64,000 bases of DNA from an uncultured Bacillales bacterium (GCA_946403545.1 CAMJAG010000001.1:872-64871), one strand, 5' to 3'; numbered from the stretch's first letter, positions 38,999-55,463 are shown. Made by a program: numbers and translations. The notes: generated by a model not told the origin, from the letters alone.

Positions 38999-39829
38999 AT
39001 GAATAATGAAACAAATAAAAATGAATTAGAGAATGAGAAAGTTTATATTTTCATTTCGCATTCTCATAAAGATATAGAAAAAGTAAGAAAAATTAGAAAT
39101 TATTTAGAGAGTCTTGATTGTGAACCAATTCTTTTCTTTTTAAAAAGCAAAGATGATGAAGATGAGATAATTCAACTTATCAAAGACGAGATTGATGCTA
39201 GAGTTTGGTTTATTTATTGTAGATCTATAAATGCATCTAAATCTAAATGGGTTAATGATGAAGTAACATATGTTGAGCAAACAGGTAAAAACAACATAGT
39301 TATAGATATCGATGGATGCCTAGATGAAAATGGAGAATTAAAAAATAGCGTTAAAAATAAACTTAATGTCATTATTAACGGATTTAGAAACTTACAACAA
39401 TTGTATATTTCTTATTCACACAAAGACTCTGTTGAAGTTCTTCGTATTGTCCAGTTTTTAAAAAGATATGGTGTTGATTTGTTTTATGATGACATGACAC
39501 ATTTTGGATCAGATTGGAAACATTCTATTCATAATCAAATTGTTAAATCGCCATATTTTCTGGTTTTTTTAAGCAAACAATCCATTAATTCACATTTCAT
39601 TTATGATGAAATAAAGCTAGCACAATACTTTAATAAAGAAATAATTCCCGTAATTCTTTATAACAATATTAACGATTATTATTCAGTCATTGAATCAGAT
39701 GTTTTCCAAAAGAATTTTGCATACTTTTTAGTCTGTGAATTCGATACTTCTAGTGATGTTCAATTCAAAGTGTCCTCATTTAGACTGCTAAACACATTAT
39801 TAGAGCATTTCTTTACGGATTTTGAATAA
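38999..39829 (+). CDS. tandem double-TIR domain protein
   Basis: Two TIR-like units: VYIFISHSHKD...SKWVNDEV and LYISYSHKDS...SHFIYDEI. Each keeps the conserved Glu position. Confidence 0.7.
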   Translation: MNNETNKNELENEKVYIFISHSHKDIEKVRKIRNYLESLDCEPILFFLKSKDDEDEIIQLIKDEIDARVWFIYCRSINASKSKWVNDEVTYVEQTGKNNIVIDIDGCLDENGELKNSVKNKLNVIINGFRNLQQLYISYSHKDSVEVLRIVQFLKRYGVDLFYDDMTHFGSDWKHSIHNQIVKSPYFLVFLSKQSINSHFIYDEIKLAQYFNKEIIPVILYNNINDYYSVIESDVFQKNFAYFLVCEFDTSSDVQFKVSSFRLLNTLLEHFFTDFE

Positions 39830-39832
39830 AAG

Positions 39833-39867
39833 AAAAGGTGGATTCTCATGAGTCCACCATTTTTATT
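39833..39867. repeat. 35-nt direct repeat, copy 2 (bidirectional terminator between convergent genes)
   Basis: AAAAGGTGGATTCTCATGAGTCCACCATTTTTATT. 9-bp stem with an A-run before it and a T-run after it. Confidence 0.85.
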
Positions 39868-41083: not shown

Positions 41084-41124
41084 AATTGAGATCCTCCTCA
41101 ATTACAAAATATCACGAAAATAGG

Positions 41125-41370
41125 TTAAATACAATATCTATAGAATAAAAAGAAAGACACCCCGTCAAGGATGTCTATTGCGGATACCTCGAAGATATCA
41201 GCGAAAGTATTGACTGTATCAAGATTCACTGTTCCTTCGTTTTCAATTCTGCGTAAGTTTCTTACTGAATATCCAACGCGGTCTGCTAGCTCTTCTTGAG
41301 TCCAGTTTCTACTTTTTCTTAGGTTCTTGATGGATGTACCAATCAAGCGTGAATCAATTAATGTTCTCAT
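41125..41370 (-). CDS. XRE-family helix-turn-helix transcriptional regulator
   Basis: NLRKSRNWTQEELADRVGYSVRNLRRIENEG. I prefer the ATG at 41370, which lies 8 nt after GGGAGG. The ORF-track start is 41433. Confidence 0.75.
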   Translation of the reverse strand: MRTLIDSRLIGTSIKNLRKSRNWTQEELADRVGYSVRNLRRIENEGTVNLDTVNTFADIFEVSAIDILDGVSFFLFYRYCI

Positions 41371-41455
41371 AACTACTACCTCCCAAATTGATCTGCTACC
41401 TATATTGACAGGTTTTCCTGAGTTTTGATTCACTAAGTAGTTTATGAGCGTATAT

Positions 41456-41746: not shown

Positions 41747-43099
41747 CTATTTCTTAAATCCTACACAAACAAAGCGGTTAACTGCGTACCAAAAATCATT
41801 TCTAGAGAAACGATATTGGAGTTGCGTTAACAAATCTTCCATTTCATTGAACTCTGCTTTAGTTTGCTCATTTTCGTTTGCGATTAATTGAGCTTTAAAA
41901 TAATTCAATCTATAAGCAAAGCTTACTTTATAAAGACCTAATTTCTCTTCATAAGACATATGAGATGTTTCTGTAACAGTGCAATGCATTTTAACTTTGT
42001 TAAATCCTTCATGGACTAACCAAGAATAAAGTTTTCTACCATTGTTTCTATCAGACATTCCTTCAAGAGAATAAGATTTCTTTAAGACTTTTTCTATAAG
42101 CTCATCATCTCCATAAGAAATCTTACTGCCATCATCACTACCTCTAACAATAATCATTCCGCCTTTATTCATAAGAGCCTTTAAATTCTCTAATGCTTTT
42201 TCAGGATTTGTTAGATGATGGAGGACTAAGAAACAAGAAACAACATCAAAGCCTTTAATGCCCTTTTGCTTCATTATTCCCTGCATTTCCTCCATAAATG
42301 TTGGACTTTCAATATTTAATTGATAGAAAGAGAACTTACTATTTTTATTATTTTTATTTGCTTGTTCAATAGCACTTTCACTAATATCGATTCCCACTAC
42401 TTTAGTGTATTTTGCTTTTCTAAAAGCTTGTCTAGTTACATATCCTTGAGCGCAACCAACATCTAGAACTGTGTAATTGTTTTTGTCTAAATACATGTCT
42501 AAAATGCGTTGGTTTTCATCATCATATCTAGATCCTTGGCTTTTTAATCTTTCTGATTCATTAGTGAAATCAAATTCATAAATAGACCATCTTCCTTTGT
42601 AATCAATGCAATCTTTTGGTCTTGGTCTAGAAACTAAAAACCTATTAAACAATCTCTTTTGATAATCATTTACATCAAAAACATCACCAATTGGTTCACT
42701 ATGACAATCTCTAATTGCGTCAATTTCCTTTGGTAACTTTTTTGGATAATTAACTTTATCTAAGAATAAAACTAGAATATTTAATCCTTCAGTTTTTAAA
42801 GCGGTTTCTATTTCTTGTCTAACCCAGTCATCTTTTTTAAATATTCTCTTAGAAAATGTATCTGGAGTTACAAGAAGAATAAAGTCTTTGGAATTATGGA
42901 TTGCATTAGTTAACTGAGGTGGAAACATACCACCTTGAATTGATACCTTATCAAAGAAACTTAGATAACCATTATCCATCAAATTTCTATATAAAAGATA
43001 CGTTGGATATAATCCATCACTTCTTCTATATGAAATGAAAACATCATATATAAAATCTTTTCTCTTAATTTGAGTGTTTTTATTAATTTCTTCAGGCAT
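41747..43099 (-). CDS. TIR domain fused to a class I SAM-dependent methyltransferase
   Basis: N-terminal TIR (DVFISYRRSDG...DDWVRQEIE). Central methyltransferase motif I VLDVGCAQG, then FDVVSCFLVLHHL and MIIVRGSDDG. SD AGAGGA. Confidence 0.7.
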   Translation of the reverse strand: MPEEINKNTQIKRKDFIYDVFISYRRSDGLYPTYLLYRNLMDNGYLSFFDKVSIQGGMFPPQLTNAIHNSKDFILLVTPDTFSKRIFKKDDWVRQEIETALKTEGLNILVLFLDKVNYPKKLPKEIDAIRDCHSEPIGDVFDVNDYQKRLFNRFLVSRPRPKDCIDYKGRWSIYEFDFTNESERLKSQGSRYDDENQRILDMYLDKNNYTVLDVGCAQGYVTRQAFRKAKYTKVVGIDISESAIEQANKNNKNSKFSFYQLNIESPTFMEEMQGIMKQKGIKGFDVVSCFLVLHHLTNPEKALENLKALMNKGGMIIVRGSDDGSKISYGDDELIEKVLKKSYSLEGMSDRNNGRKLYSWLVHEGFNKVKMHCTVTETSHMSYEEKLGLYKVSFAYRLNYFKAQLIANENEQTKAEFNEMEDLLTQLQYRFSRNDFWYAVNRFVCVGFKK

Positions 43100-43198: not shown

Positions 43199-45580
43199 AT
43201 GTATCCTGAATTACTTGCTATTTTCATTATTACTGGAGTTGTTGAACTCGTTTTAATAGGTGTATTTTTTTATAACCTAATCAGATATAGATATCTTGGT
43301 AATAAATATTTTTACGTAACTGTAAGTGTATTAGTTCTTTTGATGTATTCAACATTCGTCAATAGATCATCAGATCTTTCTATTTCTATGTTTGGAAACA
43401 TAGTGTTTGACACTATTGCGGCAGCAGTAGGTAAAGTTGATACTGAAAAGATTTCTTGGCTGTTTTTACCGGGCGAATGGAATAAATGGCTAGTAATTTT
43501 CTACTTTATCGCCTCATATACAACATTCGCATTCTTATCCATCACAGTTATTCTTAACTTTGCAAAACTCTTCTTAAATGCATTTATTTTCTATAAAAGA
43601 CGAATTATAAATGGAGCAAATGTGTACTATTTGTTCACAGATTCTAGAAATGAAACAGTAATTCCTTTAGCCACTAAACTATTAGATGAAACAAAAGGTC
43701 GTAAAAACTCAGTTAAAGTTTTCGTTTCTAGAGCATCTTTAAAAACTCAAGAAGGTAATGAATTTAGAGATATGTTAGTGGGCTTAGGCATTCCTGTTCA
43801 AGCTGAAAAATTCTCATACAGGATGGCTAGAAAGATCTTTAATTCTAGATACTTCAAACTACATCTTTTTGATAAGCAACAATCGTTTATTTACTTACTT
43901 TTCTCAAATGACGAAACCACTACAAAAGTGGCAACTGATTTCAAAACAGCGATTCAAAAGAATCGTAAGTTTAAAAAAATTAACGACTTTGTAACTCTTT
44001 TAAAGGAAACAAAAGACAAAGATAAATTAGAGAAATTAAAAGAGAACTTTAATGAGAAAGAATATGATTTATTACAAAAAATCCAAATCTTTGTCACTTA
44101 TCAAGAAACAGATTTAGATATTCTCCATAACTTCTCTGGAGAGACATTGCATATCATGAATACTCTTTCTAAGTACGACATGATTGCTTCTAGATTTGTA
44201 TTTGATAATCCAATCTCTCAATTAGTGGACTTAAACAACATCAAACTTAAAGAAGACAATAAACATTTAAATGTTACACTCCTTGGTTTTGGTGTTATTG
44301 ATAGAGCAATATTTGAAAGAATGACATTCTCTTATCAACTTTATGGAGATAATATTAACAAAGTTAATTACCATGTTTTAGATAGAGATGCTGATTCTTT
44401 AATTAAACCTTATGTAAACGAATATACAGATAGAAATAACAGTGTTTATCTATACTCTATCGACTCCGCTTTCGATGGAGAAGATTTAAGACACTACGAA
44501 ACAATTGATAGATATATCTCATCATTGCAAAACGATCCAAACCGTTTCCAAGATGATGGTTTTGAAATCTTTGTTATTTCAGTCATAAACTCAAATAACG
44601 ATTTAAATATCGCGCTTAACTTAAGAAGAGCTATCTTAAAATACTTCAATGATAGATGTGAACAAGTTGTTATTTACGTCAGAGTTGCAGAAAGACTCAT
44701 TGGAGAACAATTCAGAGGTTCAAATCTTTCATACACATACGAAACTCTCTCTCATATTCACGAAGTAAAAGACTTCAATAAGAAATCTGATGTAGAGAAA
44801 GAAGCATACTTCAACTCATTCAAGGACGAGGAAGAAAGAAAAGCAGCAGAGAAAAGATTAATTAAAGATTTAAAAGCACCTATCATTCTCTTTGGTAATG
44901 ATGCAATTATGTCCACATATCTTGCTAGAGAACATAAATACTTCATGGGATTCGCTGAAAACGCTTGGAAATCCTACCAATTAGAACAAGCTTATAACAA
45001 TTATTCTGAAACTCAACTTGATAGATTATGGTTAAGACAAAATAAACAAGAAGTTAAAAATAACACTGATTATGTTCTTTCACTTAGAACAAAGCTAAAC
45101 TTATTTGGCTACAAACTAAATCTAAATAAACAAGAAAACCAATACTTAATGGTTCCTGGTGATGATGTTTCAATTCTTACTTCAGGTGAAAATGAAGAAA
45201 CATTCCTTGAAAGAACAAAACTTAAAGATGAAACTGGTGATGTTGCAAAAGTTCTTAAGATTGCTGATATGGAACATAACCGCTGGTTACAATCCAATAA
45301 CCAAAGATTTAGATATTTATCTAAAGATTACACAAAGGTCGAGGATCAAGAACTATTTGGAGTGAATAAATACACCAATGAAAAAGAAATCACAAGGAAA
45401 TATAACGACAATACACAACACATTTGTATGGTCACTAATGAGGGATTAAGAGACTTCTACAATTATGTTGGAAAGAAAAATCCTGAATATAAAGATGTCG
45501 CTTTAAAACTTGTGTACACAAACGATATTGTTCAGTTAAGAACGATAATCAAAAATGGAACAGAACAAAAGAATAAATAA
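43199..45580 (+). CDS. large membrane protein with Rossmann-like (GxGxxD) segment and weak C-terminal RyR-like signature
   Basis: Four or five N-terminal TM segments. VTLLGFGVIDRAI. C-terminal IADMEHNRWLQSN. SD GAGG. Confidence 0.5.
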   Translation: MYPELLAIFIITGVVELVLIGVFFYNLIRYRYLGNKYFYVTVSVLVLLMYSTFVNRSSDLSISMFGNIVFDTIAAAVGKVDTEKISWLFLPGEWNKWLVIFYFIASYTTFAFLSITVILNFAKLFLNAFIFYKRRIINGANVYYLFTDSRNETVIPLATKLLDETKGRKNSVKVFVSRASLKTQEGNEFRDMLVGLGIPVQAEKFSYRMARKIFNSRYFKLHLFDKQQSFIYLLFSNDETTTKVATDFKTAIQKNRKFKKINDFVTLLKETKDKDKLEKLKENFNEKEYDLLQKIQIFVTYQETDLDILHNFSGETLHIMNTLSKYDMIASRFVFDNPISQLVDLNNIKLKEDNKHLNVTLLGFGVIDRAIFERMTFSYQLYGDNINKVNYHVLDRDADSLIKPYVNEYTDRNNSVYLYSIDSAFDGEDLRHYETIDRYISSLQNDPNRFQDDGFEIFVISVINSNNDLNIALNLRRAILKYFNDRCEQVVIYVRVAERLIGEQFRGSNLSYTYETLSHIHEVKDFNKKSDVEKEAYFNSFKDEEERKAAEKRLIKDLKAPIILFGNDAIMSTYLAREHKYFMGFAENAWKSYQLEQAYNNYSETQLDRLWLRQNKQEVKNNTDYVLSLRTKLNLFGYKLNLNKQENQYLMVPGDDVSILTSGENEETFLERTKLKDETGDVAKVLKIADMEHNRWLQSNNQRFRYLSKDYTKVEDQELFGVNKYTNEKEITRKYNDNTQHICMVTNEGLRDFYNYVGKKNPEYKDVALKLVYTNDIVQLRTIIKNGTEQKNK

Positions 45581-45588
45581 CCTATGAA

Positions 45589-45614
45589 AAGCCATAGAAC
45601 TGGCTTTTCTTTTT
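45589..45614 (+). terminator. intrinsic terminator after the 793-aa gene
   Basis: AAGCCA (45589-45594) pairs with TGGCTT (45601-45606), followed by TTCTTTTT. Confidence 0.6.
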
Positions 45615-45632
45615 ACTTTACACTACAAATAC

Positions 45633-45645
45633 ACGCATAATGCGT
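45633..45645. promoter_or_regulatory. perfect palindrome ACGCAT-A-ATGCGT abutting a TATAAT box (candidate operator)
   Basis: Palindrome at 45633-45645. TATAAT at 45648-45653. The operon starts at 45695. Confidence 0.3.
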
Positions 45646-45694
45646 TATATAATGGATTTGTAGAAATACAAATATAGCAATGGAGAATTAGATT

Positions 45695-46618
45695 ATGATT
45701 ACAGAAATTCATAAGAATTATTCTGCTTTTCGAGAAATGTTGTTAGCCACAACTGCTTTAAGCAACCGTTCTAGTAAGAAATATGATGACGATTGCAAAG
45801 CAATCATTGATTTCATCGGAGAAGCATATGGTCTAGAAAAAGACCTCGTAGAATATTGTAAAAAGGTCATTTTAGATGAACTAGTTACAATATCTACTGA
45901 CCAAGATATCCGCGCTTTCGTAAATTCACATACCGCTGACAGTGAATTAGAAGAATTAGACTCTTTATTAAGCGCTAAATGTGATGTTATTGGAGTTATT
46001 AGAAACTTTGGAGAAGTTAGAAGTCCTCAATTAAGTGAGACTTGGTTTGACTATAGTCATAGCAATCCATATTATCCAGAAATTAGATATCAACAATTAT
46101 CTATCGCTGCTTCCACAGGTAATGTAGTAGCAAATAAGATCGTTGGTATTCTTTCTGTTTTAGGTATTGGATGCGAAGCTACTAGAGAAAAGGTTCTTTC
46201 TGGAGTTTATAGACTTAGACAATGCGCTATTTGGGGAGACATTTCTTCTCTAATTATGATTAGACAAGTTTATAGAATCTTAGAAATGAAAGAACAAGTA
46301 AAACTCTATGATGAATTAGTGTCATTAGTACCTTTCATGAAAGAAGGAAGAACAGTAATTCCTCAAAGAATTGCAGAGAAAATCTCTAGAGAAGCAATAG
46401 AAACATTCGCAATTATCTGTTCTATTAAACAAGACATTATCTTAAATCAACATAAGTTCTACATAGATTATTCATTCGTTGAAGTTATGTTACTTAAAGA
46501 AGTTGATTACTATGATAAACTCCACTTCATTAATAAATATGACGCTCAAGAGTGGAAAGAAGTTACTAACTCATCATTTAATCCAAATAAGAAGATTGGA
46601 TTTAAGATTGGAGAATAG
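45695..46618 (+). CDS. helical repeat protein (Sel1/TPR-like?)
   Basis: 307 aa. The segment AASTGNVVANKIVGILSVLGIGCEATREKVLSGVYRLRQCAIWGD resembles Sel1-like repeats. SD GGAG. Confidence 0.35.
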   Translation: MITEIHKNYSAFREMLLATTALSNRSSKKYDDDCKAIIDFIGEAYGLEKDLVEYCKKVILDELVTISTDQDIRAFVNSHTADSELEELDSLLSAKCDVIGVIRNFGEVRSPQLSETWFDYSHSNPYYPEIRYQQLSIAASTGNVVANKIVGILSVLGIGCEATREKVLSGVYRLRQCAIWGDISSLIMIRQVYRILEMKEQVKLYDELVSLVPFMKEGRTVIPQRIAEKISREAIETFAIICSIKQDIILNQHKFYIDYSFVEVMLLKEVDYYDKLHFINKYDAQEWKEVTNSSFNPNKKIGFKIGE

Positions 46619-46621
46619 ATT

Positions 46622-48586
46622 ATGAAAAGAAGACCATATTCTGAACAAGTATCTCAAAAATACATTGATCAAAATCTTGAAAACACTCAAATAATGTCCT
46701 TCCTTGAATATAAAGGTAAAGGCTACGCTAAATACTTATTTGATGATTTAGCAAAAACTGATATCAAAGGATTCCCATTCTCTAGTGATTTTGTATCTTC
46801 TAAAGGGAAATCATATTCCTTTATTGATTTTGAAAATCTAAGTGATAAAGAAAAAGCGGATTGTAAACTTAGATTCTTCTATTTACCTAATTATCATGAG
46901 TTATATATCGGTACTACTGGTTCTGGTAAAACTACAGGATGTATTGAACCACAAATCAGAGCGATATCCACTCAAAAGAATAAAGCTAACTTATTTATTA
47001 CTGACCCTAAAGGTGAGTTATTTGAACATAATGGTAAATACTTAAAAGACCAAGGTTATAACGTATTTGTTCTTAACTTTAGAAACTTAGGTAGAACTCA
47101 TACATGGAATCCACTTAAAGAAATGTATGAAAAACAAATGGAATCTCTCACTATTGGAAAGAATAGTAAGAAATGTAATTGTCCAGTAGATAAGTCACTA
47201 GCGTTAATGTCTGAAAAGAGTAAATATCAAGGCACATATATTGCTTATAAACACATGGCATTTGCAACACAAGAAGACTTTGATAAATACGTGAATATTG
47301 AAACTTATTTAAATAAATCCAAAGTTTCTTCATTAGTTAACCAATTATGTGACTGTATCTTTAGTGAAGATAAATCCACTACAGATAGAACTTGGAGTGA
47401 TGGTGCTAGAGGATTATTCCATGGTATTTTATTGTCCATGTTAGAAGAAGCTGTTTTACCAGGAAGTAAGTTTAGCGAACAACATATGACATTAAAGACA
47501 GTTAACGATATCTTCAATTTAATTAGAGAAGGTAGCGAAACTCGCGATTCATATGGAGATCACTACACTAACGAAGAAATGCATGAGAAGATGGTAGACT
47601 TCTTGCATGGTAAATCATCTATTTGTATGAGCAAGTTAAATAATATTATTAAGACTGCTCAAACAACGAGAAAAGGGTTTTTATCAACATTCTTATCCAC
47701 TACTGAAAAATGGATGCAAGGTCACATCTATCAATTGACAAGTCATACATCTATTTCTCTAGAAGATAATGAACATCCTTGGGCGGTATTTGTATCCACT
47801 AGAGACTATGATAAATCAGATAATGTTATCGCTGGTTTATTCATTGACTGGGTATATAGACAATCTCTACAAGCTGTTGAAGAGAAACGTAAACTCGGTT
47901 TAGAACCTAGACCAATTCACTTCTTATTAGATGAATTCGCTAACATTCCAAGAATCCCTGACTTTGATAATAAGATTGCTACTGCTAGAAGTAGAAATAT
48001 GTGGTTCCACTTATTCGTTCAATCTTATGATCAATTAGATTTAATCTATGGAGAAGAAACAGCCTCTATTATCGTAGATAACTGTAACCAACAAACATTC
48101 TTAGGTTCTCAATCTCAAGAAACTAAAGAAAGATTCTCTAGAGAATGTGGTAAAAAGACTGTTACATCCTTAGAAGGTGTTATTCATGGTGAAGTTAACG
48201 ATGTTGTAGAAATCCCAGTTGTGCCTATCACAAGTCTAGATCAAATCAAACCTGGTGAAATGTACACTAAACGTATTTATTCTCCAATATTAAGATGTAG
48301 CTTTATCAGAAGCTATCAATGCGCTCAACAAGGTATCTTTAAAAACTTCTGGAATAATAAAGCGGAAGAAGAACTTATTCCACTTAACTATGTTATTCCT
48401 GATGATTTAGAACATTCTTATTTACCAGTATTAAGCGCTATTGAAGTAAGAAGATTATGTCCACCTAGACCAAGAAATCCTCGTAGTAGAGTTCAATACG
48501 AAGATGAAGACATGGAAGCAGAAGATCCTGAAGACTTTGAAGACTTCTTACATGAAGTTCAACTTAAGATGAAAGGAAAGAAGTAG
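46622..48586 (+). CDS. soluble VirD4/TraG/TraD-family (type IV coupling protein-like) P-loop ATPase
   Basis: Walker A GTTGSGKTTG. FITDPKGE. Walker B-like HFLLDEFANIP. Also FHLFVQSYDQL. No N-terminal TM segments. Acidic C-terminal tail. Confidence 0.7.
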   Translation: MKRRPYSEQVSQKYIDQNLENTQIMSFLEYKGKGYAKYLFDDLAKTDIKGFPFSSDFVSSKGKSYSFIDFENLSDKEKADCKLRFFYLPNYHELYIGTTGSGKTTGCIEPQIRAISTQKNKANLFITDPKGELFEHNGKYLKDQGYNVFVLNFRNLGRTHTWNPLKEMYEKQMESLTIGKNSKKCNCPVDKSLALMSEKSKYQGTYIAYKHMAFATQEDFDKYVNIETYLNKSKVSSLVNQLCDCIFSEDKSTTDRTWSDGARGLFHGILLSMLEEAVLPGSKFSEQHMTLKTVNDIFNLIREGSETRDSYGDHYTNEEMHEKMVDFLHGKSSICMSKLNNIIKTAQTTRKGFLSTFLSTTEKWMQGHIYQLTSHTSISLEDNEHPWAVFVSTRDYDKSDNVIAGLFIDWVYRQSLQAVEEKRKLGLEPRPIHFLLDEFANIPRIPDFDNKIATARSRNMWFHLFVQSYDQLDLIYGEETASIIVDNCNQQTFLGSQSQETKERFSRECGKKTVTSLEGVIHGEVNDVVEIPVVPITSLDQIKPGEMYTKRIYSPILRCSFIRSYQCAQQGIFKNFWNNKAEEELIPLNYVIPDDLEHSYLPVLSAIEVRRLCPPRPRNPRSRVQYEDEDMEAEDPEDFEDFLHEVQLKMKGKK

Positions 48587-48587
48587 T

Positions 48588-49133
48588 ATGGCTAACGATA
48601 ATTTTGAAGAATTATATAAACAAGGAATTATAGTCATCACTACTGGTATAGAAGATATGGATGTTACTAGTAACATCATCTTATCTCTTCTTAATTGGAA
48701 CAGAATTGATCCAAAGAAAGAATTACAACTCTATATCTCTTCAGTATCTGGAGACTACCTAAATGTCCTTTCTATTTATGACGCTATCCAATCAATTAGT
48801 AATCCAATTTCAGGATATTGTATTGGTTTAGTTGGTAGTTGCGCTGCACTACTTTTAGCGGCGTGTAACAAAGGTAAACGCTACATTTTAGAGCATAGTC
48901 AAATTGCTTTAAGAGAGATTTCTGGCATTATTCCTGGTGGAAGTAAACAACAAACAGAAATCGAAATTCTCGCAAACGAATTAGCGTCTCAAAGAGAAAC
49001 ATTTGAATCTCTTCTTTCAAAACATACAGGTCAATCCGTTGAAGAAATACACCACCTTTGCTATGAAAACACTTATTTAACTCCTGAAGAAGCTATTAAA
49101 AAAGGCTTCGTAGATAAGATTGTGAGGAAATAA
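48588..49133 (+). CDS. ClpP-like (S14) subunit, predicted catalytically inactive
   Basis: Aligns by eye with ClpP. Ser is kept (GLVGSCAA), but His is replaced (IALREI versus IHQP) and Asp is replaced (YENTYL versus ERDRFL). Confidence 0.6.
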   Translation: MANDNFEELYKQGIIVITTGIEDMDVTSNIILSLLNWNRIDPKKELQLYISSVSGDYLNVLSIYDAIQSISNPISGYCIGLVGSCAALLLAACNKGKRYILEHSQIALREISGIIPGGSKQQTEIEILANELASQRETFESLLSKHTGQSVEEIHHLCYENTYLTPEEAIKKGFVDKIVRK

Positions 49134-49135
49134 TT

Positions 49136-49648
49136 ATGGATAACAGAATTATTACTTTAAATGGTGAAATCAACGAAGGAAGCGCGATGAAAGTTATTCT
49201 TTCATTACTTCAAATGGATGCTGAAAATAGAAAACAACCAATATATCTATATATCAACTCTCCTGGTGGAAATATTGTTCATGGATTAGCAATATATGAT
49301 GTTATGAATAACATATCCGCTCCGGTATATACAGTATGTAATGGCATGGCAGCATCGATGGGTAGTTTCTTACTCTCTTGTGGTGCTAAAGGACATAGAT
49401 ATTGTTTAAAACACTCTCGTATTCTTATCCATCAACCACTTGTCTATAACAACTATGGAAGAATGATTGAAGAAAGCGAAGCTCAACAAATCGCCGCTAA
49501 TTTAAGAAAAGATAGAGATAAATTAGAACAAATCATGGCAGACAATTCTGGTAAAGACATTAAAGTCTTCCATAAGGATTGTGAAAGAGACCATTGGATG
49601 AGCGCTCAAGAAGCTCTAGACTATGGTCTAATAGATAAGATTATCTAA
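49136..49648 (+). CDS. ClpP-like (S14) serine protease subunit, catalytic triad intact, N-terminal axial region missing
   Basis: YINSPGG, GMAASMG (Ser), ILIHQP (His) and CERDHWMSAQEA (Asp). It starts at the position equivalent to RVIFLTG of canonical ClpP. Confidence 0.7.
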   Translation: MDNRIITLNGEINEGSAMKVILSLLQMDAENRKQPIYLYINSPGGNIVHGLAIYDVMNNISAPVYTVCNGMAASMGSFLLSCGAKGHRYCLKHSRILIHQPLVYNNYGRMIEESEAQQIAANLRKDRDKLEQIMADNSGKDIKVFHKDCERDHWMSAQEALDYGLIDKII

Positions 49649-49650
49649 GA

Positions 49651-49680
49651 AAAGAGGAAGTCCTAGACTTCCTTTTATTT
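49651..49680. terminator. bidirectional terminator shared by the convergent operons
   Basis: GGAAGTC (49656-49662) pairs with GACTTCC (49666-49672), flanked by an A-run and a T-run. Confidence 0.65.
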
Positions 49681-50433
49681 CACTCTATTAAGTATTAACT
49701 CAAGTGTTTCTTGGTTATTTGCAACCACTAATGAATCGCTACCAAATTCGTATTCTTTTTTATTGATGGTTTTATAAACCATTCCAGCTTCTTTTATCAA
49801 TAAAAGACCTGGTGCTATATCCCATATGTAATTGTAGTAGCAGATATATGCTTGTGCTTTTGATGTGGCTAATGTAGTAAAGTCTACACAAGCCGCTCCT
49901 AAAAGTCTCGTTTTAAGGAAATTCCCTTGTAAATCCTTCATTAATTCAAATTGTTTATCAAATGAAATGGTTTTGTTATCTTTATAAAAATCACTAGATA
50001 ATAAAACTCCATCTTCATGTTTAATATCTTTATTTACTTTAATAGGTTTTCCATTAAGGAAAGCTCCACCATCTTTCTTAGCAAGATATAACTCATCCTT
50101 ATATGGCAAATAGATTATTGATAACACTACTTCTTTCCTTTGGAAAACCGCTAGTTGAATACCACAAAGTTCTATGCCCATTGAATAGTTACAAGTGCCA
50201 TCAAGTGGATCGATAACAAAGGTTAGTTCATCTGTTAGTGGTTCGTTTTTACTTTCTTCTGCGATTATTTTTGCTTGAGGGAATTCTTTTTTAATAGCGT
50301 TAACAAAATAATCATTAAGTTCTAAATCCGCTTCTGAGAGTAAGTCATTAATAGATTTATGTTTAATTGATTTATGTTGCTTAAAGAATATGTCTTTTGA
50401 AGATAAAACTAGTTGTTTTAAATACTCTTCCAT
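49675..50433 (-). CDS. inositol monophosphatase / CysQ-family phosphatase
   Basis: Motifs IDPLDGTCNY and WDIAPG. Starts 4 nt after the TIR-STAND stop. Confidence 0.75.
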   Translation of the reverse strand: MEEYLKQLVLSSKDIFFKQHKSIKHKSINDLLSEADLELNDYFVNAIKKEFPQAKIIAEESKNEPLTDELTFVIDPLDGTCNYSMGIELCGIQLAVFQRKEVVLSIIYLPYKDELYLAKKDGGAFLNGKPIKVNKDIKHEDGVLLSSDFYKDNKTISFDKQFELMKDLQGNFLKTRLLGAACVDFTTLATSKAQAYICYYNYIWDIAPGLLLIKEAGMVYKTINKKEYEFGSDSLVVANNQETLELILNRVK

Positions 50434-50437
50434 GCGA

Positions 50438-53284
50438 TTATCCCTTCAAATCTCTAATAAATTTCTCAACATGTTTAATCCATGTTAATACTGATTCATT
50501 TTGTAAGTATTCGTATTTTCTTGTTACTTTTTGTGCTTCGCAAATCAAATTATATAAAGCTTGTGCTTCAGTTAATTCGATTGGAATATTTAGTTTTTCC
50601 GCAATTTCAATTGCTTCAGAACAAGGAGCTTCCGCTTTTGCAAGTAAGGAAGTATCTCCATTATAGTTTACTAAATAGTAAAGAGAAGTTAAGAAATAGA
50701 TTTGACCTTGGTCATATAAATCTTTATTCTCTTTAGCACATTTCATTGCTTCTTCTTTTAATTCCATGATCCTTGCTTCATTGCCACGATTAACAATTTC
50801 ATAGAACATAGATGTATATAAGAATCTTGTGTAATATCTATCATGTTGGTTATATAAGACATAGATTGCTTCCGCTTTATTAAGTTTATCTTTAGCTTTA
50901 GCTAAATCCATATGCCATATACATGCATCAGCGTATACACGATAGTCTTCCGCTAAGAAGAGGTGATCTCCAATTTGAGTGCCATCTTCCATTTCTTCTT
51001 TAACTCTTTTATCAAGAAGCGCGACAGCATTATCTGCTGCTTTATAGCAGTTTTCTAAATCAAGCCTTCTACAATAAACTTTTGATAAAGTTAAGTTAAT
51101 CAAAGATTCTTCGTATAAATCGCCTGCTTCTTTAGCGTCTTTGATCGCACCATCACTCATTCCTATGAGTTCGTCGAATAGCACCATCTTGCGATAAACA
51201 AGCATTGCCATTCTTTCAAATTCACTACGAATTTCTATGTCTAATTCGCCTAAATCATGTTCTTTGATGAATTCTTTAATGTCATTAAATGCTTCAGTAA
51301 ATGATAAGGAAATATAGTGGAATTGAATAACTCCCATATCATAGTTCACATCATCACTTGGATCTCTATTCTTTAAGAACTTACCAAATCCTGCTTCTTT
51401 AAGTTTGATAAATAAGCCAGCGTTATAGATTGCTTGTCTATATTTGATAAAGATTTTTGTAAAACATTCAGACTGATAGATTTCAAACGCTTCATAATCA
51501 TCATCCTTATAGATGTAATTGATGTTATCAATGTATTCAAATAATCCTTCATAAAGAGTGTAAAGTTTTGATTTAATACACACTCTTAAAAAGTCAAAAT
51601 TCTTTAATAGTTTACAAAGTTTTTCTGTCTTTTTAAGTGCTTTTAAGGCTTTTTGATAGTCTAAGATGACATAAGGATTGTTCTTCCATTCACCTAATTC
51701 AATTTGCTTTTCAATATATTCAAGCAAGATCTTATAACCATCTCTTCTAGAGACACAATATTTTGCAGGACATTCGTTAGATTCACTTAACCAGTCTAAA
51801 ATTGATTTATGTCTACTCTTAAGAGTGCCATCTTCAATAATTACAAAGTAATTAGATACTATATCGATATTCTTTCTAATTTCAGATTCTGATAGACCTG
51901 TTGCATCCGCTAAAAACTCCACTGTTGGAGGAACGCTTGTAGCGAGTAATAAAGATATAATCTTTCTAATATCTTCATAATCATCTGGTGCTTTAGGGAA
52001 AATTCTATCAAACCAGATTAAGTAGTATGAATAAATTCCGTCAGGGAATTCTCTAACGTTATCTAAAGAGTATTCACCACTCTTAATTAGACTAACAATA
52101 CTCTTAGCATATAAGAATGATCCATGTGTTTTTCCAAGCAAAATCCTCAGTGTTTCTGCATCGAATTTATAATTTGAGAGTGCTTGGTCATAATACTTTT
52201 TAATATCCGCAACGTTTTCTTCATTGTTTTCTAACATGCTGAAAACGTGACAACTTGAGAAGTAACTAACAACATTCTTTTGAGGTCTAGTTGAACATAA
52301 AATCTTTAACCAAGAAGGTAAAGTGTTTTGATAAGTCACTATCATCTCAGCAATTTCATTTTTATTATCCAAAACTGCTTCATCTAATGCATCGATAACA
52401 ATTATTTGAGGGTTCTTAAAAGTAACTTTGTTACCTACTTCAATAAAGAACAACTCAAATAATCTTTTAGCGTCTAAATTATCTATATTTGCTTCTCTAG
52501 TTAAAATCTTTTTAATTTCGAGATTATAATCTTCGTTACGACCAGCGATTTGTGCTGCTAAGTTTTTAATAATACTTCTAGCGTCAGTCTTAGTTCTATT
52601 ACCAAAGCTACAGAAATGGATACCTGCAACATTGTTATGGAAATTAATAGTTAACATAGCGCACATTGCAGTCTTTCCAATACCTGGAGCAGCTTGTAAT
52701 AAATAGATTGGTAAACTATCTGGTTTATTAATCCATTTTTCTACATCCGCGAAGAAAGAATCTCTACCAACAAAGTTGAGTGTATGATGAGTAATTTCAA
52801 AAGCGTCAATAGCTTGGACTTCTTTAGAAATATCAAAACCAGTATCGAAGTAGCCTACTTCTTCTTCGTTTCTAACGATCTTTAGTAATCTTTGATAGCA
52901 ACTTTCGTATACATCTTCAATGATTGAATTATCCGCTGCGACAGCGTTTTTAATCATGATTCTTTGTAAACGAACAATTGAAAGAGGAACATAAGAGTCA
53001 TCTAACATGATAGGAACAATTGTTTTCTTATATTCCACTGCTCTAGCGAGTTCATTTAAACAATATCCGTCTAGAGAAACAGACTTTTTAGATACAAAGA
53101 AAACAAAATGACTACATCTTTGAATCGCGTTATCAATTTTAGTTTCCCAATCACCTTGATATAGATAGTCCTTATCAAGGAAGACTTCATAAACTTCTTC
53201 TTTGCGTAAATCAGTAACAACTTTATTGACTACGTTTTCTAAAGTTTGATGTCCATAGGATATGAAAATAACTTGTTTATCCAT
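50438..53284 (-). CDS. TIR - STAND P-loop NTPase - TPR-like repeat protein (Avs/bNACHT-like architecture)
   Basis: TIR (VIFISYGHQ...GYCLNELA). Walker A APGIGKTA. Walker B IIVIDALDEA. The C-terminal roughly 400 aa is a helical repeat region. Confidence 0.75.
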   Translation of the reverse strand: MDKQVIFISYGHQTLENVVNKVVTDLRKEEVYEVFLDKDYLYQGDWETKIDNAIQRCSHFVFFVSKKSVSLDGYCLNELARAVEYKKTIVPIMLDDSYVPLSIVRLQRIMIKNAVAADNSIIEDVYESCYQRLLKIVRNEEEVGYFDTGFDISKEVQAIDAFEITHHTLNFVGRDSFFADVEKWINKPDSLPIYLLQAAPGIGKTAMCAMLTINFHNNVAGIHFCSFGNRTKTDARSIIKNLAAQIAGRNEDYNLEIKKILTREANIDNLDAKRLFELFFIEVGNKVTFKNPQIIVIDALDEAVLDNKNEIAEMIVTYQNTLPSWLKILCSTRPQKNVVSYFSSCHVFSMLENNEENVADIKKYYDQALSNYKFDAETLRILLGKTHGSFLYAKSIVSLIKSGEYSLDNVREFPDGIYSYYLIWFDRIFPKAPDDYEDIRKIISLLLATSVPPTVEFLADATGLSESEIRKNIDIVSNYFVIIEDGTLKSRHKSILDWLSESNECPAKYCVSRRDGYKILLEYIEKQIELGEWKNNPYVILDYQKALKALKKTEKLCKLLKNFDFLRVCIKSKLYTLYEGLFEYIDNINYIYKDDDYEAFEIYQSECFTKIFIKYRQAIYNAGLFIKLKEAGFGKFLKNRDPSDDVNYDMGVIQFHYISLSFTEAFNDIKEFIKEHDLGELDIEIRSEFERMAMLVYRKMVLFDELIGMSDGAIKDAKEAGDLYEESLINLTLSKVYCRRLDLENCYKAADNAVALLDKRVKEEMEDGTQIGDHLFLAEDYRVYADACIWHMDLAKAKDKLNKAEAIYVLYNQHDRYYTRFLYTSMFYEIVNRGNEARIMELKEEAMKCAKENKDLYDQGQIYFLTSLYYLVNYNGDTSLLAKAEAPCSEAIEIAEKLNIPIELTEAQALYNLICEAQKVTRKYEYLQNESVLTWIKHVEKFIRDLKG

Positions 53285-53966
53285 GTACTTTTTCCTCTAA
53301 AGCAATGTTATAACCCGCTTTCTTGCCTTCATTTAATGTTTCTTCATTTGCTAAATGCATAAGAGTAATTTTCTTTCTCTCTTCCATATTGAAGGCGTTA
53401 TTTAATACTGAAATATGAGTATGTATCATCGCATTAAGAGAAGTTGTAACTTCATGATACATTTCATCTATTTTTCCTGATTTAAGTTCTCTAACTGCTC
53501 TATCAAGTAGTTCAGATGTATCTCCTGAATAGTAGAAATTAATTTCTTTAGAATATACAAAATATGCATAACTACCAGGAATATGTGGAACTTCAACAGG
53601 TTCCACTTTTAAATCTTTGATTAAAGAGTAGTCATTATATATTTCAAAATCAAAATCTAAACCAGTTAATTGGAGTAGTTTTTTAAGATTATCTTTTAAA
53701 GGATAGAAGACTTTTACCGTCTTTTTTGAGAAGAAATGAATCCAATATAAGAATGGTTCAAGGCTTCCAATATGATCACTATGAAGATGGGTAATTAAAA
53801 CAACAATTTCATCAACATCATCTAAAAGATGAAGTGCTAAAATCTTGTCACAAATTTTCTCGCCCATATCAAAAATATACAATTTGCCATTTTGTTTAAA
53901 ATAAGCACAATTGTTATTTGTGAAATAGTTAAAAGCGGCTCCTACACCTAAAAATTTTAAATACAT
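53277..53966 (-). CDS. metallo-beta-lactamase-fold hydrolase
   Basis: HxHxDH motif as ITHLHSDHIG. Overlaps the TIR-STAND start by 8 nt. Confidence 0.75.
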   Translation of the reverse strand: MYLKFLGVGAAFNYFTNNNCAYFKQNGKLYIFDMGEKICDKILALHLLDDVDEIVVLITHLHSDHIGSLEPFLYWIHFFSKKTVKVFYPLKDNLKKLLQLTGLDFDFEIYNDYSLIKDLKVEPVEVPHIPGSYAYFVYSKEINFYYSGDTSELLDRAVRELKSGKIDEMYHEVTTSLNAMIHTHISVLNNAFNMEERKKITLMHLANEETLNEGKKAGYNIALEEKVHG

Positions 53967-53968
53967 AA

Positions 53969-54226
53969 TTATTTAATTATCTTATAGCCTTCTTTAAGAA
54001 TACATTTAATCGTAGCAAGAGCGGTATTCCTATCATATTCTTTTTCTTCTTCAGGAAGTTCATCATAAGGCACTAAACAAGGAGTTTGTTTTTTAGTGTC
54101 ATTTCTTTCTGGACCATAGGTCCATCCATCTTTGATTCTTCCTTCCATCCAAGTTATATGGACTTGTTCCGCTATTATTTCGATAAGTTGTTTTATATCT
54201 TCAGTGATAACAATATCTTTTTCCAT
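53969..54226 (-). CDS. stand-alone RyR (ryanodine-receptor repeat) domain protein
   Basis: AEQVHITWMEGRIKDGWTYGPERNDTKKQTPCLVPYDELPEEEKEYDR closely follows the bacterial RyR-domain consensus. Confidence 0.7.
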   Translation of the reverse strand: MEKDIVITEDIKQLIEIIAEQVHITWMEGRIKDGWTYGPERNDTKKQTPCLVPYDELPEEEKEYDRNTALATIKCILKEGYKIIK

Positions 54227-54228
54227 AA

Positions 54229-54666
54229 TTATTCGTCTTCTAGTATTTTTTGAAATAAGCTGTATTCATCTCTAGTTATTGTATCATCACTAGCAGTTAG
54301 AGCGATACCATATAAAACAACAGCAGTTTTAGTATCTTCATCAAATTCTTCTTTGATATTATTTACCATTGCTTTAACAAAAGCTTCTTTATCTCCAAAT
54401 TGAGTAGCATGGAAGAATTCTCTATAAGAAACATCTAATCCTGTTGCTTCTTTAAAGAATCCATATTCCTTAACAGCGCAATCTTTATCAGCAGAAACGT
54501 ACATTCTAGTTAAGTTAATAACAATATTAGCGATTCTATCTTTGTGATAATCTTGTTTTCTAAGATTACGATAAAGTCTTTCTAAAGCTTGTCTACCTAA
54601 CTTTGCTCTTTCAGCATCTTCTAAATTAACAACTTCATGCATGACTCGTTCTACTTCTTTATTCAT
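54229..54666 (-). CDS. TerB-like domain protein (paralog 2)
   Basis: Two half-motifs, YVSADKDCAVKEYGFF and LTASDDTITRDEYSLF, resemble TerB. Confidence 0.5.
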   Translation of the reverse strand: MNKEVERVMHEVVNLEDAERAKLGRQALERLYRNLRKQDYHKDRIANIVINLTRMYVSADKDCAVKEYGFFKEATGLDVSYREFFHATQFGDKEAFVKAMVNNIKEEFDEDTKTAVVLYGIALTASDDTITRDEYSLFQKILEDE

Positions 54667-54681
54667 AATATGTTCTTCCTA

Positions 54682-54903
54682 TTATTTTTTACTTTTTAGA
54701 TTACAAGCATTTGGGAAATTAATTTCCCACGCTGCTGCTCTTGCTATTTGAAGTAATTTATATTTCTTATCTTCATCAGTTATCTCTTTGATAACTTCTT
54801 TAGTATTTGGATTTAACAAAAATATTTTGGATTCTTTAACTCCAAATACTGAATCTCTTACTTCGTATAAGTGTCTTCCGTTACGAAATTGAAATGGTTT
54901 CAT
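54682..54903 (-). CDS. hypothetical small protein
   Basis: 73 aa. Its start overlaps the upstream stop (TAATG). Confidence 0.45.
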   Translation of the reverse strand: MKPFQFRNGRHLYEVRDSVFGVKESKIFLLNPNTKEVIKEITDEDKKYKLLQIARAAAWEINFPNACNLKSKK

Positions 54904-55331
54904 TATGCAAGCAATTTGTCGATTAAATCTTGTTCTGCAACTGTTAATGTGTGGTCACTTGCTAAGAAAGTAACTGCAAATAAGACCATACTTGTTCTTG
55001 TTTTGTTATCTGCTTTTTTCATTAAGTTAGCAAATTCATTAACATAATCATCATCTAAGCCACCATTGGTCATGTCATAGAATGTATCTGTATCCATATC
55101 AATACCAGTGACTGCTCTAAAGAAAGAATATTCTGCTCCACTACATTTGCCATCAGCAGAAACTAAAATTCTAACTAAGTGAATAATTAAGTTAGTAATT
55201 TCATCCTTATTACAACCGAGTTCTTTTAAACCTCCGATAAAGTCGTTTAAAGCATGTGCAGCAATATTAACTTTTTCTTGTGGTTCTTCGTTTAAAATGT
55301 TTTGGCACATTTTTCTTAATTCAGCATCCAT
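54903..55331 (-). CDS. TerB-like domain protein (paralog 1)
   Basis: LVSADGKCSGAEYSFF and FLASDHTLTVAEQDLI. I prefer the ATG at 55331 (MDAELRK), which lies 7 nt after GGGAGGA. The ORF-track start is 55349. Confidence 0.5.
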   Translation of the reverse strand: MDAELRKMCQNILNEEPQEKVNIAAHALNDFIGGLKELGCNKDEITNLIIHLVRILVSADGKCSGAEYSFFRAVTGIDMDTDTFYDMTNGGLDDDYVNEFANLMKKADNKTRTSMVLFAVTFLASDHTLTVAEQDLIDKLLA

Positions 55332-55427
55332 ATGAAATCCTCCCATCATTAATGAAAGACTTCAAACATATAGTTTTTGTCCATTCAATTACATATAAAT
55401 ATCTGTCTAAATTTATTTTATCATTTT

Positions 55428-55463
55428 TAAAGAACAAAAAGAACACGTTTTTAACGTGCTCTT
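55428..55463 (-). terminator. intrinsic terminator after cysK
   Basis: On the minus strand AAGAGCACG pairs with CGTGTTCTT (plus-strand arms 55439-55447 and 55455-55463, one G-U pair), followed by TTTGTTCTTT. Confidence 0.55.

Follow-up and report, generated by a model that had tools for sequence, protein, structure and literature searches.

What are the limits of the putative defence system around a TIR-STAND protein in an uncultured Bacillales bacterium, and what do the genes packed beside it contribute? The question is raised by a stretch of 64,000 nucleotides (nt) of DNA (GCA_946403545.1 CAMJAG010000001.1:872-64871; the window in what follows, with positions counted from its first nucleotide). 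An earlier note on the window had described a seven-gene minus-strand operon linking a TIR-STAND protein to a metallo-β-lactamase (MBL)-fold hydrolase, an inositol monophosphatase (IMPase)-family phosphatase, a stand-alone ryanodine receptor (RyR) domain protein and two TerB-like paralogues. We find that this block is two recurrent modules joined, rather than one indivisible seven-gene system. The first (Module 1) is built on the TIR-STAND and IMPase genes, the only two of the seven that are widely kept together, with the MBL gene present in about 40% of loci. The boundary drawn in the note is wrong because the TerB-like/RyR pair co-varies with an operon on the other strand, omitted there, that encodes ClpP-like proteins, a VirD4-like ATPase and a membrane protein (Module 2). 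What emerges is a TIR-STAND system, predicted from its domains to act in defence, with undescribed, recurrent accessory modules. We put at about even the chance that the two operons, some 12 genes between 43199 and 55349, make up a composite, TIR-centred anti-phage island of which the minus-strand block is one half. No earlier description was found of the combination of a TIR-STAND protein, a phosphatase, an RyR protein, a ClpP pair and a channel-like membrane protein.

Layout of the minus-strand block

All seven minus-strand open reading frames (ORFs) between 49675 and 55331 lie at the coordinates reported earlier, and a hairpin scan confirmed that they are packed between two terminator-like hairpins. 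Loci in other genomes are referred to by L numbers; aa, amino acids. In order of transcription, the genes and their boundaries are:

55439-55463, minus strand: terminator-like hairpin of cysK, the right-hand edge of the island
54903-55331, minus strand: TerB-like paralogue 1, a helical protein of 142 aa when read from the ATG at 55331 (Pfam TerB, E = 0.03, sub-threshold)
54682-54903, minus strand: 73-aa ORF (BLASTP 3e-10 to residues 4-68 of a 192-aa protein in L067)
54229-54666, minus strand: TerB-like helical protein, paralogue 2, 2 nt from the RyR gene (Pfam TerB, PF05099, E = 0.0025, sub-threshold)
53969-54226, minus strand: stand-alone RyR (Repeat12-type) domain protein, 85 aa (Pfam RyR, PF02026, 3.3e-26)
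53277-53966, minus strand: predicted Apyc1-like MBL-fold phosphodiesterase, 229 aa, its stop overlapping the STAND start by 8 nt (Pfam, PDB and PHROG matches)
50438-53284, minus strand: protein of 948 aa with TIR, NACHT-type STAND NTPase, winged helix and a helical (TPR-like) putative sensor of about 400 aa (Pfam and alignment)
49675-50433, minus strand: predicted IMPase-superfamily phosphomonoesterase, 252 aa, the constant STAND partner (Pfam Inositol_P, 5.2e-48)
49655-49673, both strands: bidirectional terminator-like hairpin flanked by an A-run and a T-run, between the IMPase stop and the convergent ClpP gene

From the first gene to the seventh, the junctions are a 1-nt overlap, a 15-nt gap, two successive 2-nt gaps, an 8-nt overlap and a 4-nt gap. 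The longest ORF for the first gene begins at 55349; the ATG at 55331 is preferred because a GGGAGGA Shine-Dalgarno sequence lies 7 nt 5' of it and homologues share this start methionine. The hairpin at 49655-49673 also closes the convergent plus-strand operon, and eight terminator-like sites are found in the region, compared with 2.3 ± 1.8 in shuffled sequence. G+C content is about 29-34% across 40-64 kb (1-kb windows), with no step at the block.

Pfam profile searches upheld the calls of TIR, NACHT-type STAND NTPase, IMPase, RyR and MBL domains, and the motifs quoted for them (the TIR glutamate, Walker A and B, and those of the IMPase and MBL proteins) are genuine and conserved across orthologues. 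The TerB-like label is weak, both matches lying below threshold.

The TIR-STAND gene and its phosphoesterase partners

The 948-aa protein matches Pfam TIR_2 (1.9e-15), a TANC1-type winged helix and the NACHT-like NPHP3_N (6.4e-22). When 25 full-length orthologues (27-64% identity) are aligned, TIR residue E78, Walker A residues G201, G203 and K204 and Walker B residues D298, D301 and E302 are invariant, as are many residues of the C-terminal helical region; together with the Pfam matches, this supports the effector-NTPase-sensor layout of antiviral STAND proteins that had been proposed for it. The NACHT model itself matches 8 of the 25 orthologues. The TPR label given to the C-terminal region fares less well: TPR_1, TPR_2 or TPR_12 each match three to six of the orthologues and, as the TPR models match 6 of 25 and miss the window protein, it is a fair guess rather than a result. 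PADLOC returns TIR-domain matches and STAND_TPR at E = 0.0049 only, with no match to its Avs or bNACHT models, and an exact-sequence look-up of the window protein found nothing. Full-length homologues fall into about 26 clusters at 27-99% identity. Their hosts are mostly uncultured gut or rumen Bacilli, Clostridia, Lachnospiraceae and Anaeroplasma, with more distant relatives in Bacteroidota, Spirochaetota and Actinomycetota identified in a scan of one genome per species.

To define what accompanies this gene, STAND relatives were gathered from the protein database, their contigs and one genome per species, and neighbouring genes were scored with the window proteins and by clustering. Clustering at 90% identity left 37 distinct orthologues, 34 of which had enough flanking sequence to judge. 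An IMPase gene lies within 300 nt of the STAND gene, mostly immediately downstream, in 24 of the 34 loci, an MBL gene in 14, a PHP phosphoesterase gene in two and a HAD phosphatase gene in two, so that at least one phosphoesterase of these four unrelated folds occupies the STAND-adjacent position in 31/34. RyR and TerB-like genes are each found within 6 kb in only 4/34 loci, and ClpP genes within 9 kb in 5/34. The surroundings of the TIR-STAND/IMPase pair vary from locus to locus (an oxaloacetate decarboxylase gene, a PTS component gene, the asp23-nusB interval) and, since these flanking housekeeping genes differ, we conclude that the pair moves as a unit.

Both partner proteins look intact. 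The IMPase scores 164 bits against PF00459 (cut-off 27), its EE, DPxDGT and WDxxPG motifs are kept in 34 orthologues, and its pairwise identities and those of the STAND protein are correlated (r = 0.82). The MBL protein exceeds the Pfam cut-off for Lactamase_B (1.6e-06) and falls just short of that for Anti-Pycsar_Apyc1 (PF23023; 6e-12, 46.0 bits against a cut-off of 50). Matches to PDB entries (phmmer) are to 7fct (6e-27) and to the Apyc1 structures 7u2r (3e-16) and 7u2s (2e-11), and PHROG 392 is matched at 3e-23. Its metal ligands (HxHxDH together with H128, D149, H172, H182 and H204) are conserved in 17 homologues, and its pairwise identities also follow those of the STAND protein (r = 0.85). 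By sequence, the MBL protein is closest to the Apyc1 cyclic-nucleotide phosphodiesterases. The two proteins can be regarded as real, conserved and apparently active partners of TIR-STAND, not chance neighbours. The MBL may nonetheless be dispensable in one lineage, as suggested by a 71-aa ORF upstream of the STAND gene in L063 (7793-8008) that matches the MBL protein (4e-07) and is apparently a decayed MBL gene. Protease-activated MBL nuclease effectors (PMC12642450) were considered and rejected: those are zymogens whose partner sensor carries a trypsin-, caspase- or subtilisin-like protease domain, whereas the window MBL is a 229-aa Apyc1-like protein and the STAND protein has no protease domain.

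In lineages that lack the IMPase gene, a PHP gene lies upstream of the STAND gene (L009/L010/L039/L051/L052) or a Cof-type HAD gene downstream of it (L034/L037). The IMPase, PHP and HAD superfamilies all include phosphomonoesterases for similar small substrates, and the PHP and HAD genes look like non-orthologous replacements of the IMPase gene. TIR and a phosphatase are joined in one polypeptide in L067 (1-592, extending past the locus edge), where a 974-aa protein with Pfam TIR_2, HAD_2 and faint PfkB matches, and so possibly a sugar kinase domain too, is encoded about 10 kb from an RyR/ClpP module that has no TIR-STAND gene. The use of unrelated phosphoesterase folds in the same position, and likewise the TIR-HAD-PfkB fusion, suggests that a phosphoester-bearing small molecule linked to the TIR reaction has to be processed. 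A near-obligate phosphatase partner, swapped for PHP or HAD proteins elsewhere, would imply an undescribed nucleotide-chemistry step in TIR-STAND immunity.

It is possible, though we consider it doubtful, that this step serves nothing more than depletion, Module 1 being a self-contained abortive-infection device in which the TIR domain acts only as an NADase, as in other TIR-STAND proteins of the Avs type, the phosphoesterases reinforce loss of NAD(P) and the RyR/ClpP genes are unrelated neighbours. The IMPase superfamily includes NADP phosphatases and 2'/3'-nucleotidases, and the window IMPase has weak NCBIfam matches to NADP phosphatase/NAD kinase and CysQ models; it might remove the 2'-phosphate of NADP(H) to supply the TIR domain. 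Alternatively, IMPase and MBL might together destroy ADP-ribose (ADPR) and so counter phage pathways such as NARP1, which rebuilds NAD+ from ADPR (PMC13232231). Most orthologous loci, moreover, consist of TIR-STAND and IMPase genes, with or without MBL, and no candidate effector, and a survey of Thoeris systems likewise treats STAND-borne TIR domains as NAD+-depleting effectors (10.64898/2025.12.03.692087). Against this, an Apyc1-like cyclic-nucleotide phosphodiesterase would be an odd choice for linear ADPR. Simple depletion also leaves unexplained both the recurrence of RyR genes beside TIR-STAND relatives in three phyla and the packing on one strand, in distant loci, of ClpP, membrane RyR, PHP, TIR-STAND and MBL genes. 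These latter observations favour the composite island, the second module of which is described below.

A convergent operon forms the second module

The plus-strand operon that converges on the block comprises five genes:

43199-45580, plus strand: membrane protein, 793 aa, modelled with transmembrane helices at the N-terminus, two RCK/KTN-like Rossmann domains in tandem and a helical domain at the C-terminus
45695-46618, plus strand: 307-aa protein of no clear family (weak, sub-threshold Pfam Tis1_ImmP match, E = 4.9e-4)
46622-48586, plus strand: VirD4/TraG-like P-loop ATPase, 654 aa (Pfam T4SS-DNA_transf 1.6e-37, TraG-D_C 8e-28)
48588-49133, plus strand: ClpPa, a ClpP-like paralogue whose catalytic triad is lost (alignment)
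49136-49648, plus strand: ClpPb, a ClpP-like protease whose Ser-His-Asp triad is intact, as it is in all orthologues

The TerB-like/RyR pair, the ClpPa and ClpPb genes and the membrane protein gene recur together in seven distinct loci (the window, which equals L064 and L065; L062; L063; L066; L067/L068; L069/L070; and L071), where gene order is shuffled and linkage kept. The TerB-like gene is immediately upstream of the RyR gene in these loci and, in six of the seven, the RyR gene comes straight after the active ClpP gene and converges on it; in the window, the MBL, TIR-STAND and IMPase genes lie between the two. The TerB-like/RyR pair belongs primarily with the plus-strand operon (43199-49648), not with the TIR-STAND gene. 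Four of the seven loci (the window, L062, L063 and L071) nevertheless adjoin TIR-STAND and IMPase genes, each with a different gene order.

All three triad residues of ClpPa are lost in every orthologue (L009, L039, L062, L063, L066, L067, L069 and L071), and ClpPa and ClpPb look like an obligate active/inactive heteromer lying beside an apparently soluble VirD4-like ATPase rather than a Clp unfoldase. No hydrophobic membrane anchor is evident at the N-terminus of this ATPase when the sequence is read by eye; it scores 240 bits against the NCBIfam model conju_CD1115, under the cut-off of 250, and its gene is co-conserved with the ClpP pair in L062, L063, L066, L067, L071 and L037. A metagenome scan with the VirD4-like protein recovered three loci only; in two of these the element is that of the window itself. 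The 307-aa protein gene, upstream of the VirD4-like gene, has orthologues in L063, L067 and L071. The 793-aa protein has no sequence-family match and no recognisable selectivity filter, and its structure model is of low confidence in the membrane part; its C-terminal domain carries an invariant EHNRW motif, and a relative in L045 matches Pfam Slo-like_RCK. RCK/KTN folds of known channels bind NAD(H) or ATP/ADP.

The smaller genes of the minus-strand block are less regular. Orthologues of TerB-like paralogue 1 head the MBL/TIR-STAND/IMPase block in L001, L062 and L071. The idea of two fixed TerB-like types, one for each module, holds only in the closest clade (the window, L062 and L071) and blurs in L063, L067 and L069, and was set aside. 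The 73-aa ORF has no family match and is absent from L062, L063 and L071, while the gene for the 192-aa protein that it resembles in L067 is two genes from the TerB-like/RyR pair. As the ORF matches only the first 68 residues and is absent from the most closely related loci, it is probably an N-terminal remnant of the 192-aa gene.

More distant STAND relatives show parts of both modules side by side. In L009/L039 (STAND 28% identical), the genes lie tightly packed on one strand, an arrangement consistent with a single operon; their products are, in order, a TIR-TPR protein, an inactive ClpP, an active ClpP, a membrane protein of 874 aa bearing an RyR motif at its C-terminus, a protein of 361 aa, PHP, TIR-STAND and MBL. 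Marinifilum breve (L040) has, directly upstream of TIR-STAND, a small RyR gene and one for a membrane protein of 619 aa that ends in an RyR domain (Pfam 1e-9); an MBL gene lies downstream. Bacteroides cellulolyticus (L045) combines TIR-STAND, MBL and small RyR genes with one for a membrane protein of 706 aa that matches Slo-like RCK and RyR, and a Sphaerochaetaceae genome (L046) combines a small RyR gene with a gene of 74 aa and one for a TIR-NACHT-TPR protein. Frisingicoccus caecimuris (L037) carries ClpP, a VirD4-like gene and a polytopic membrane protein gene 4 kb from TIR-STAND and HAD. Three of these relatives come from isolates (F. caecimuris DSM 28559, M. breve JC075 and B. cellulolyticus) which, if obtainable, would make native hosts for genetic work.

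The membrane RyR proteins, of 619-874 aa (L040 7538-9397; L045 14953-17073; L039 5109-7733), are encoded beside TIR-STAND in Bacteroidota and Clostridia and directly follow a small RyR gene in two of the three cases. Their transmembrane helices at the N-terminus, RCK-like domain and RyR domain at the C-terminus make them look, from sequence, like candidate ligand-gated channels. The window's 793-aa family matches them in the central domain only (hhalign E = 1.5e-5), direct BLASTP matches of the 793-aa protein to the proteins of L039, L040 and L045 being marginal. The EHNRW motif does resemble the RyR His-x-x-Trp motif, and an RyR-like C-terminus in the 793-aa protein is a lead, not a finding.

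How much of this linkage reflects function? We think it unlikely that the region is simply a defence island of independent systems lying side by side, in which co-occurrence follows from a common mobile ancestry, the RyR protein responds to ATP/ADP or some other ligand on behalf of its own module, and two further TIR genes to the left (a tandem-TIR and a TIR-methyltransferase gene, described below) count as additional neighbours. In about 24 loci Module 1 does occur on its own, and in L067, beside a DpnII system, Module 2 has no adjacent TIR-STAND gene; the STAND proteins of the joint loci (the window, L062, L063 and L071) are 53-64% identical to that of the window, and these loci could descend from one element. 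RyR Repeat12 domains, too, bind ATP and adenine ligands, according to work cited in two recent reports (PMC13232231; 10.64898/2026.06.04.730250). On the other hand, gene order between the modules differs in all four joint loci while adjacency is kept, the window's RyR pair lies inside the TIR-STAND operon with 2-nt gaps, and STAND relatives at only 27-28% identity (L009/L039, L037, L040, L045 and L046) are again found near ClpP pairs, VirD4-like or RyR genes.

RyR proteins in hosts and phages

The 85-aa RyR protein scores 91.8 bits against a Pfam cut-off of 27.4, and its PDB matches include the 'putative ryanodine receptor' of B. thetaiotaomicron (3nrt, E = 3e-28) as well as RyR R12 domains. 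Across nine operon-linked homologues, residues H23, W26, K62 and D65 do not vary; T48 takes the place of a phosphate-contacting His, this position being Thr or Asn in 8/9. RyR genes are found near TIR-STAND relatives in three phyla, in L040, L045 and L046 in addition to L062, L063 and L071 of the Bacillota.

RyR-domain proteins have only recently been shown to bind or cleave TIR signals, and only as phage weapons. RyDEP, a mycobacteriophage RyR-domain protein, is a glycosidase that opens 2'cADPR and 3'cADPR (isomers of cyclic ADP-ribose, cADPR) to ADPR by cleaving the ribose-ribose bond, other phage RyR proteins acting as nanomolar sponges (PMC13232231). Independent work shows that a second phage protein, RyR Tad, sequesters 3'cADPR, 2'cADPR and cADPR (10.64898/2026.06.04.730250), and the affinities of RyR domains for these three ligands are given as nanomolar to sub-micromolar (PMC13232231; 10.64898/2026.06.04.730250). 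Neither report, in the sections consulted or searched by term, discusses host-encoded RyR genes in TIR operons. Residues H75, W78, H100 and D117 of RyDEP were matched to window residues through RyR alignments rather than by direct alignment with RyDEP; on this basis, T48 is the equivalent of H100, and the His, Trp and Asp shown there to be needed for binding or catalysis appear to be retained in the window protein. The proposal that a TIR-derived nucleotide is processed, quenched or sensed by the accessory proteins gains indirect support from these 2026 reports on 2'cADPR and 3'cADPR.

Since both families were first characterised as phage anti-defence proteins, the window's RyR and MBL genes might instead be counter-defence genes of a mobile element, RyDEP/RyR-Tad-like against Thoeris and Apyc1-like against Pycsar, shielding that element from host immunity. 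We regard this as highly improbable. Homologues of the RyR protein occur in 245 phage records, and the adjacent VirD4-like gene and the ClpP-like genes, which resemble head-maturation proteases, would suit a mobile element. Yet the MBL stop codon overlaps the TIR-STAND start, the MBL gene recurs beside TIR-STAND in chromosomes where the Pfam-labelled flanking genes are of housekeeping type, and the closest RyR gene in the phage collection, on an unverified metagenomic 'phage' scaffold (L072), is accompanied by no other island gene. Nor does the element look mobile, and a conjugative element or prophage was rejected. A search of the island and of L069/L071 turned up no relaxase, type IV secretion system (T4SS), integrase or capsid gene; among the neighbours at 31.8-57 kb and in L067, L069 and L071, neither T4SS nor relaxase families appeared; and the plasmid collection yielded no STAND relative beyond domain-level matches.

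RyR genes were also seen on plasmids (L073 and L074), where no TerB-like partners were found. In L073, the Priestia aryabhattai plasmid NZ_CP128553.1 (55615-69857), the gene just ahead of RyR encodes an adenylate/guanylate cyclase; their operon, which includes a gene for a 'Pycsar system effector family protein' as well, converges on a gene for a 743-aa TIR protein; an MBL hydrolase gene lies about 4.5 kb upstream of this Pycsar-like operon on the opposite strand.

A proposed model for a composite island

Starting from the domain identities, catalytic-residue conservation and gene linkages described above, we propose the following biochemical steps, signal and defence function for the composite two-module island, to which, as a whole, we give even odds. 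The NACHT-type STAND ATPase would probably recognise an invader through its C-terminal helical domain and oligomerise with ATP, bringing TIR domains together to cleave NAD+ to nicotinamide and ADPR and/or cADPR isomers. The IMPase and, where present, the Apyc1-like MBL would hydrolyse NAD(P)-derived nucleotide products or precursors, and in doing so could impose a threshold, terminate the response or finish emptying the pool. Three roles can be imagined for them: clearing leaky signal in the manner of ring nucleases, completing NAD(P) depletion, or destroying ADPR so that a phage cannot rebuild NAD+. The small RyR protein, made with its TerB-like partner, would probably bind the cyclic ADPR-type product as a receptor, buffer or off-switch, and the signal could be coupled to the convergent operon, where the candidate executors are the channel-like membrane protein with its RCK gating ring and the active/inactive ClpP pair with the VirD4-like ATPase. 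For the reading of a TIR nucleotide signal, the 2026 RyR papers lend support by inference only.

A number of observations weigh against this model. Some 24 loci hold TIR-STAND and IMPase alone among housekeeping genes and, as most loci have no separate effector, the TIR domain may be a mere NAD+-depleting effector that makes no signal. Module 2 has no TIR-STAND gene within 10 kb in L067, its neighbours there being the DpnII restriction-modification system, radical-SAM genes and the TIR-HAD-PfkB fusion at the locus edge, and none was seen up to the contig end in L069. Part of the co-occurrence of the two modules comes from closely related elements, so these observations are not fully independent. 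The His that contacts ligand phosphates in RyDEP and RyR Tad is Thr or Asn in the window clade, and the Module 2 RyR protein could sense ordinary adenine nucleotides. An RyR-like C-terminus in the 793-aa protein was not borne out, profile-profile comparison with small RyR proteins being non-significant (E = 0.24) and none of ten remote family members matching Pfam RyR. The IMPase substrate, finally, is unreadable from sequence because no NCBIfam equivalog (HisN, SuhB/IMPase, CysQ or NADP phosphatase) reaches its cut-off and all fall far below, HisN coming closest (1.5e-31; 109.8 bits against a cut-off of 275).

A stronger version, which seems improbable to us, makes host RyR proteins the natural bacterial receptors of TIR-made cADPR isomers. 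The signal would come from a STAND-borne TIR domain and be buffered or relayed by a small RyR/TerB-like pair; the executors would be an RCK-gated, channel-like membrane protein ending in an RyR-type domain and an active/inactive ClpP pair driven by the VirD4-like ATPase, with the IMPase and Apyc1-like phosphoesterases built in to clear the signal. If true, it would constitute a prokaryotic cADPR-to-RyR-domain signalling axis, suggest a source for phage RyDEP and RyR Tad and offer a precedent for the link between cADPR and the ryanodine receptor in animals. Host-encoded RyR genes in or beside TIR operons in three phyla, together with channel-like RyR membrane proteins, make the idea of a bacterial role, and of an origin for the phage versions, testable, and link a newly found ligand-binding family to host TIR immunity in a form open to experiment.

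The wider island

Two further TIR genes lie to the left of the plus-strand operon. The first, at 38999-39829 on the plus strand, encodes a 276-aa tandem-TIR protein that matches ThsB models (PADLOC 1e-14), Pfam TIR_2 (2e-26) and ThsB_TIR (4e-10); it is the second TIR gene of the island and has no recognised effector alongside. The other, at 41747-43099 on the minus strand, encodes a 450-aa fusion of an N-terminal TIR domain to an S-adenosylmethionine-dependent methyltransferase. It brings to three the TIR genes within 16 kb, and after it come an HTH_3 regulator gene (41125-41433, minus strand) and a gene for a 411-aa family-less protein (39866-41101, minus strand). On its left, the island ends near 39 kb. 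The only tRNA gene of the window, for tRNA-Ala (anticodon CGC; 31715-31790, minus strand), lies about 7 kb further left and adjoins a GGDEF diguanylate cyclase gene (31866-33113, minus strand).

MADS (the methylation-associated defence system) was considered as an assignment for this region and rejected. Only the methyltransferase domain of 41747-43099 (mad2, 1.9e-16) and the ATPase of 46622-48586 (mad8, 2.2e-10) match, through generic domain similarity, and the other genes of mad1-mad8 are absent; the published system is a proteobacterial eight-gene operon of different composition.

Comparison with known systems

In line with the earlier note, none of the databases and papers searched names the gene set: PADLOC calls no system here, and searches of the literature, including one on TIR/STAND proteins with inositol monophosphatase, ClpP, VirD4 and anti-phage terms, gave no description. 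Searched by term, a survey of NAD+/ADPR systems in viruses makes no mention of RyR, ryanodine, inositol, IMPase, TerB or ClpP.

The closest parallel for the proposed logic is Thoeris, where a TIR protein turns NAD+ into a cyclic ADPR-type signal that is read by a dedicated binding domain. In the window, however, the TIR domain is fused to its own STAND sensor rather than forming a small ThsB protein, there is no named Ths effector (no PADLOC Ths effector model matches any of the twelve island genes), the candidate reader is an RyR domain and the candidate effectors are the RCK-type membrane protein and the ClpP pair. TIR-STAND proteins are usually viewed as self-contained NAD+-depleting effectors, and the survey that defined Thoeris types I-XI, none of which has RyR, IMPase or ClpP components, excluded STAND-borne TIR domains at the outset (10.64898/2025.12.03.692087).

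In its architecture, the 948-aa protein resembles Avs and bNACHT proteins: an N-terminal TIR domain with catalytic Glu, a NACHT-type P-loop NTPase in the centre and, at the C-terminus, a helical domain that is TPR-like in part make up one large polypeptide found in variable genomic contexts. It differs from them in its near-obligate phosphoesterase partner and, in some lineages, its RyR and ClpP modules, neither of which we found described for Avs or bNACHT. The model of the 793-aa protein, with transmembrane helices followed by tandem RCK-like domains, recalls RCK/KTN-gated ion channels and transporters (KtrA/TrkA, MthK, GsuK, CASTOR and Slo); unlike these, it has no selectivity filter that could be seen and carries an extra C-terminal EHNRW domain.

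The two families known from phages may be put to a different use here. The window MBL shares full-length similarity with Apyc1 structures and the conserved metal ligands but, unlike the anti-Pycsar protein, is host-encoded, translationally coupled to the TIR-STAND gene and below the Pfam Apyc1 threshold. The window RyR protein, similarly, belongs with RyDEP and RyR Tad to PF02026 and is of similar size with the same His-x-x-Trp and Asp positions. It differs in being host-encoded, within or beside a TIR operon and always paired with a TerB-like protein, in having Thr or Asn for the phosphate-contacting His, and in its proposed role as receptor, buffer or off-switch rather than in immune evasion. 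A last comparison is with the ring nucleases of type III CRISPR systems, host enzymes encoded in an immune operon that degrade its own nucleotide signal. Folds and signals are unrelated and the analogy is one of function only, but the IMPase, MBL and RyR proteins may likewise degrade the nucleotide signal of the system to which they belong.

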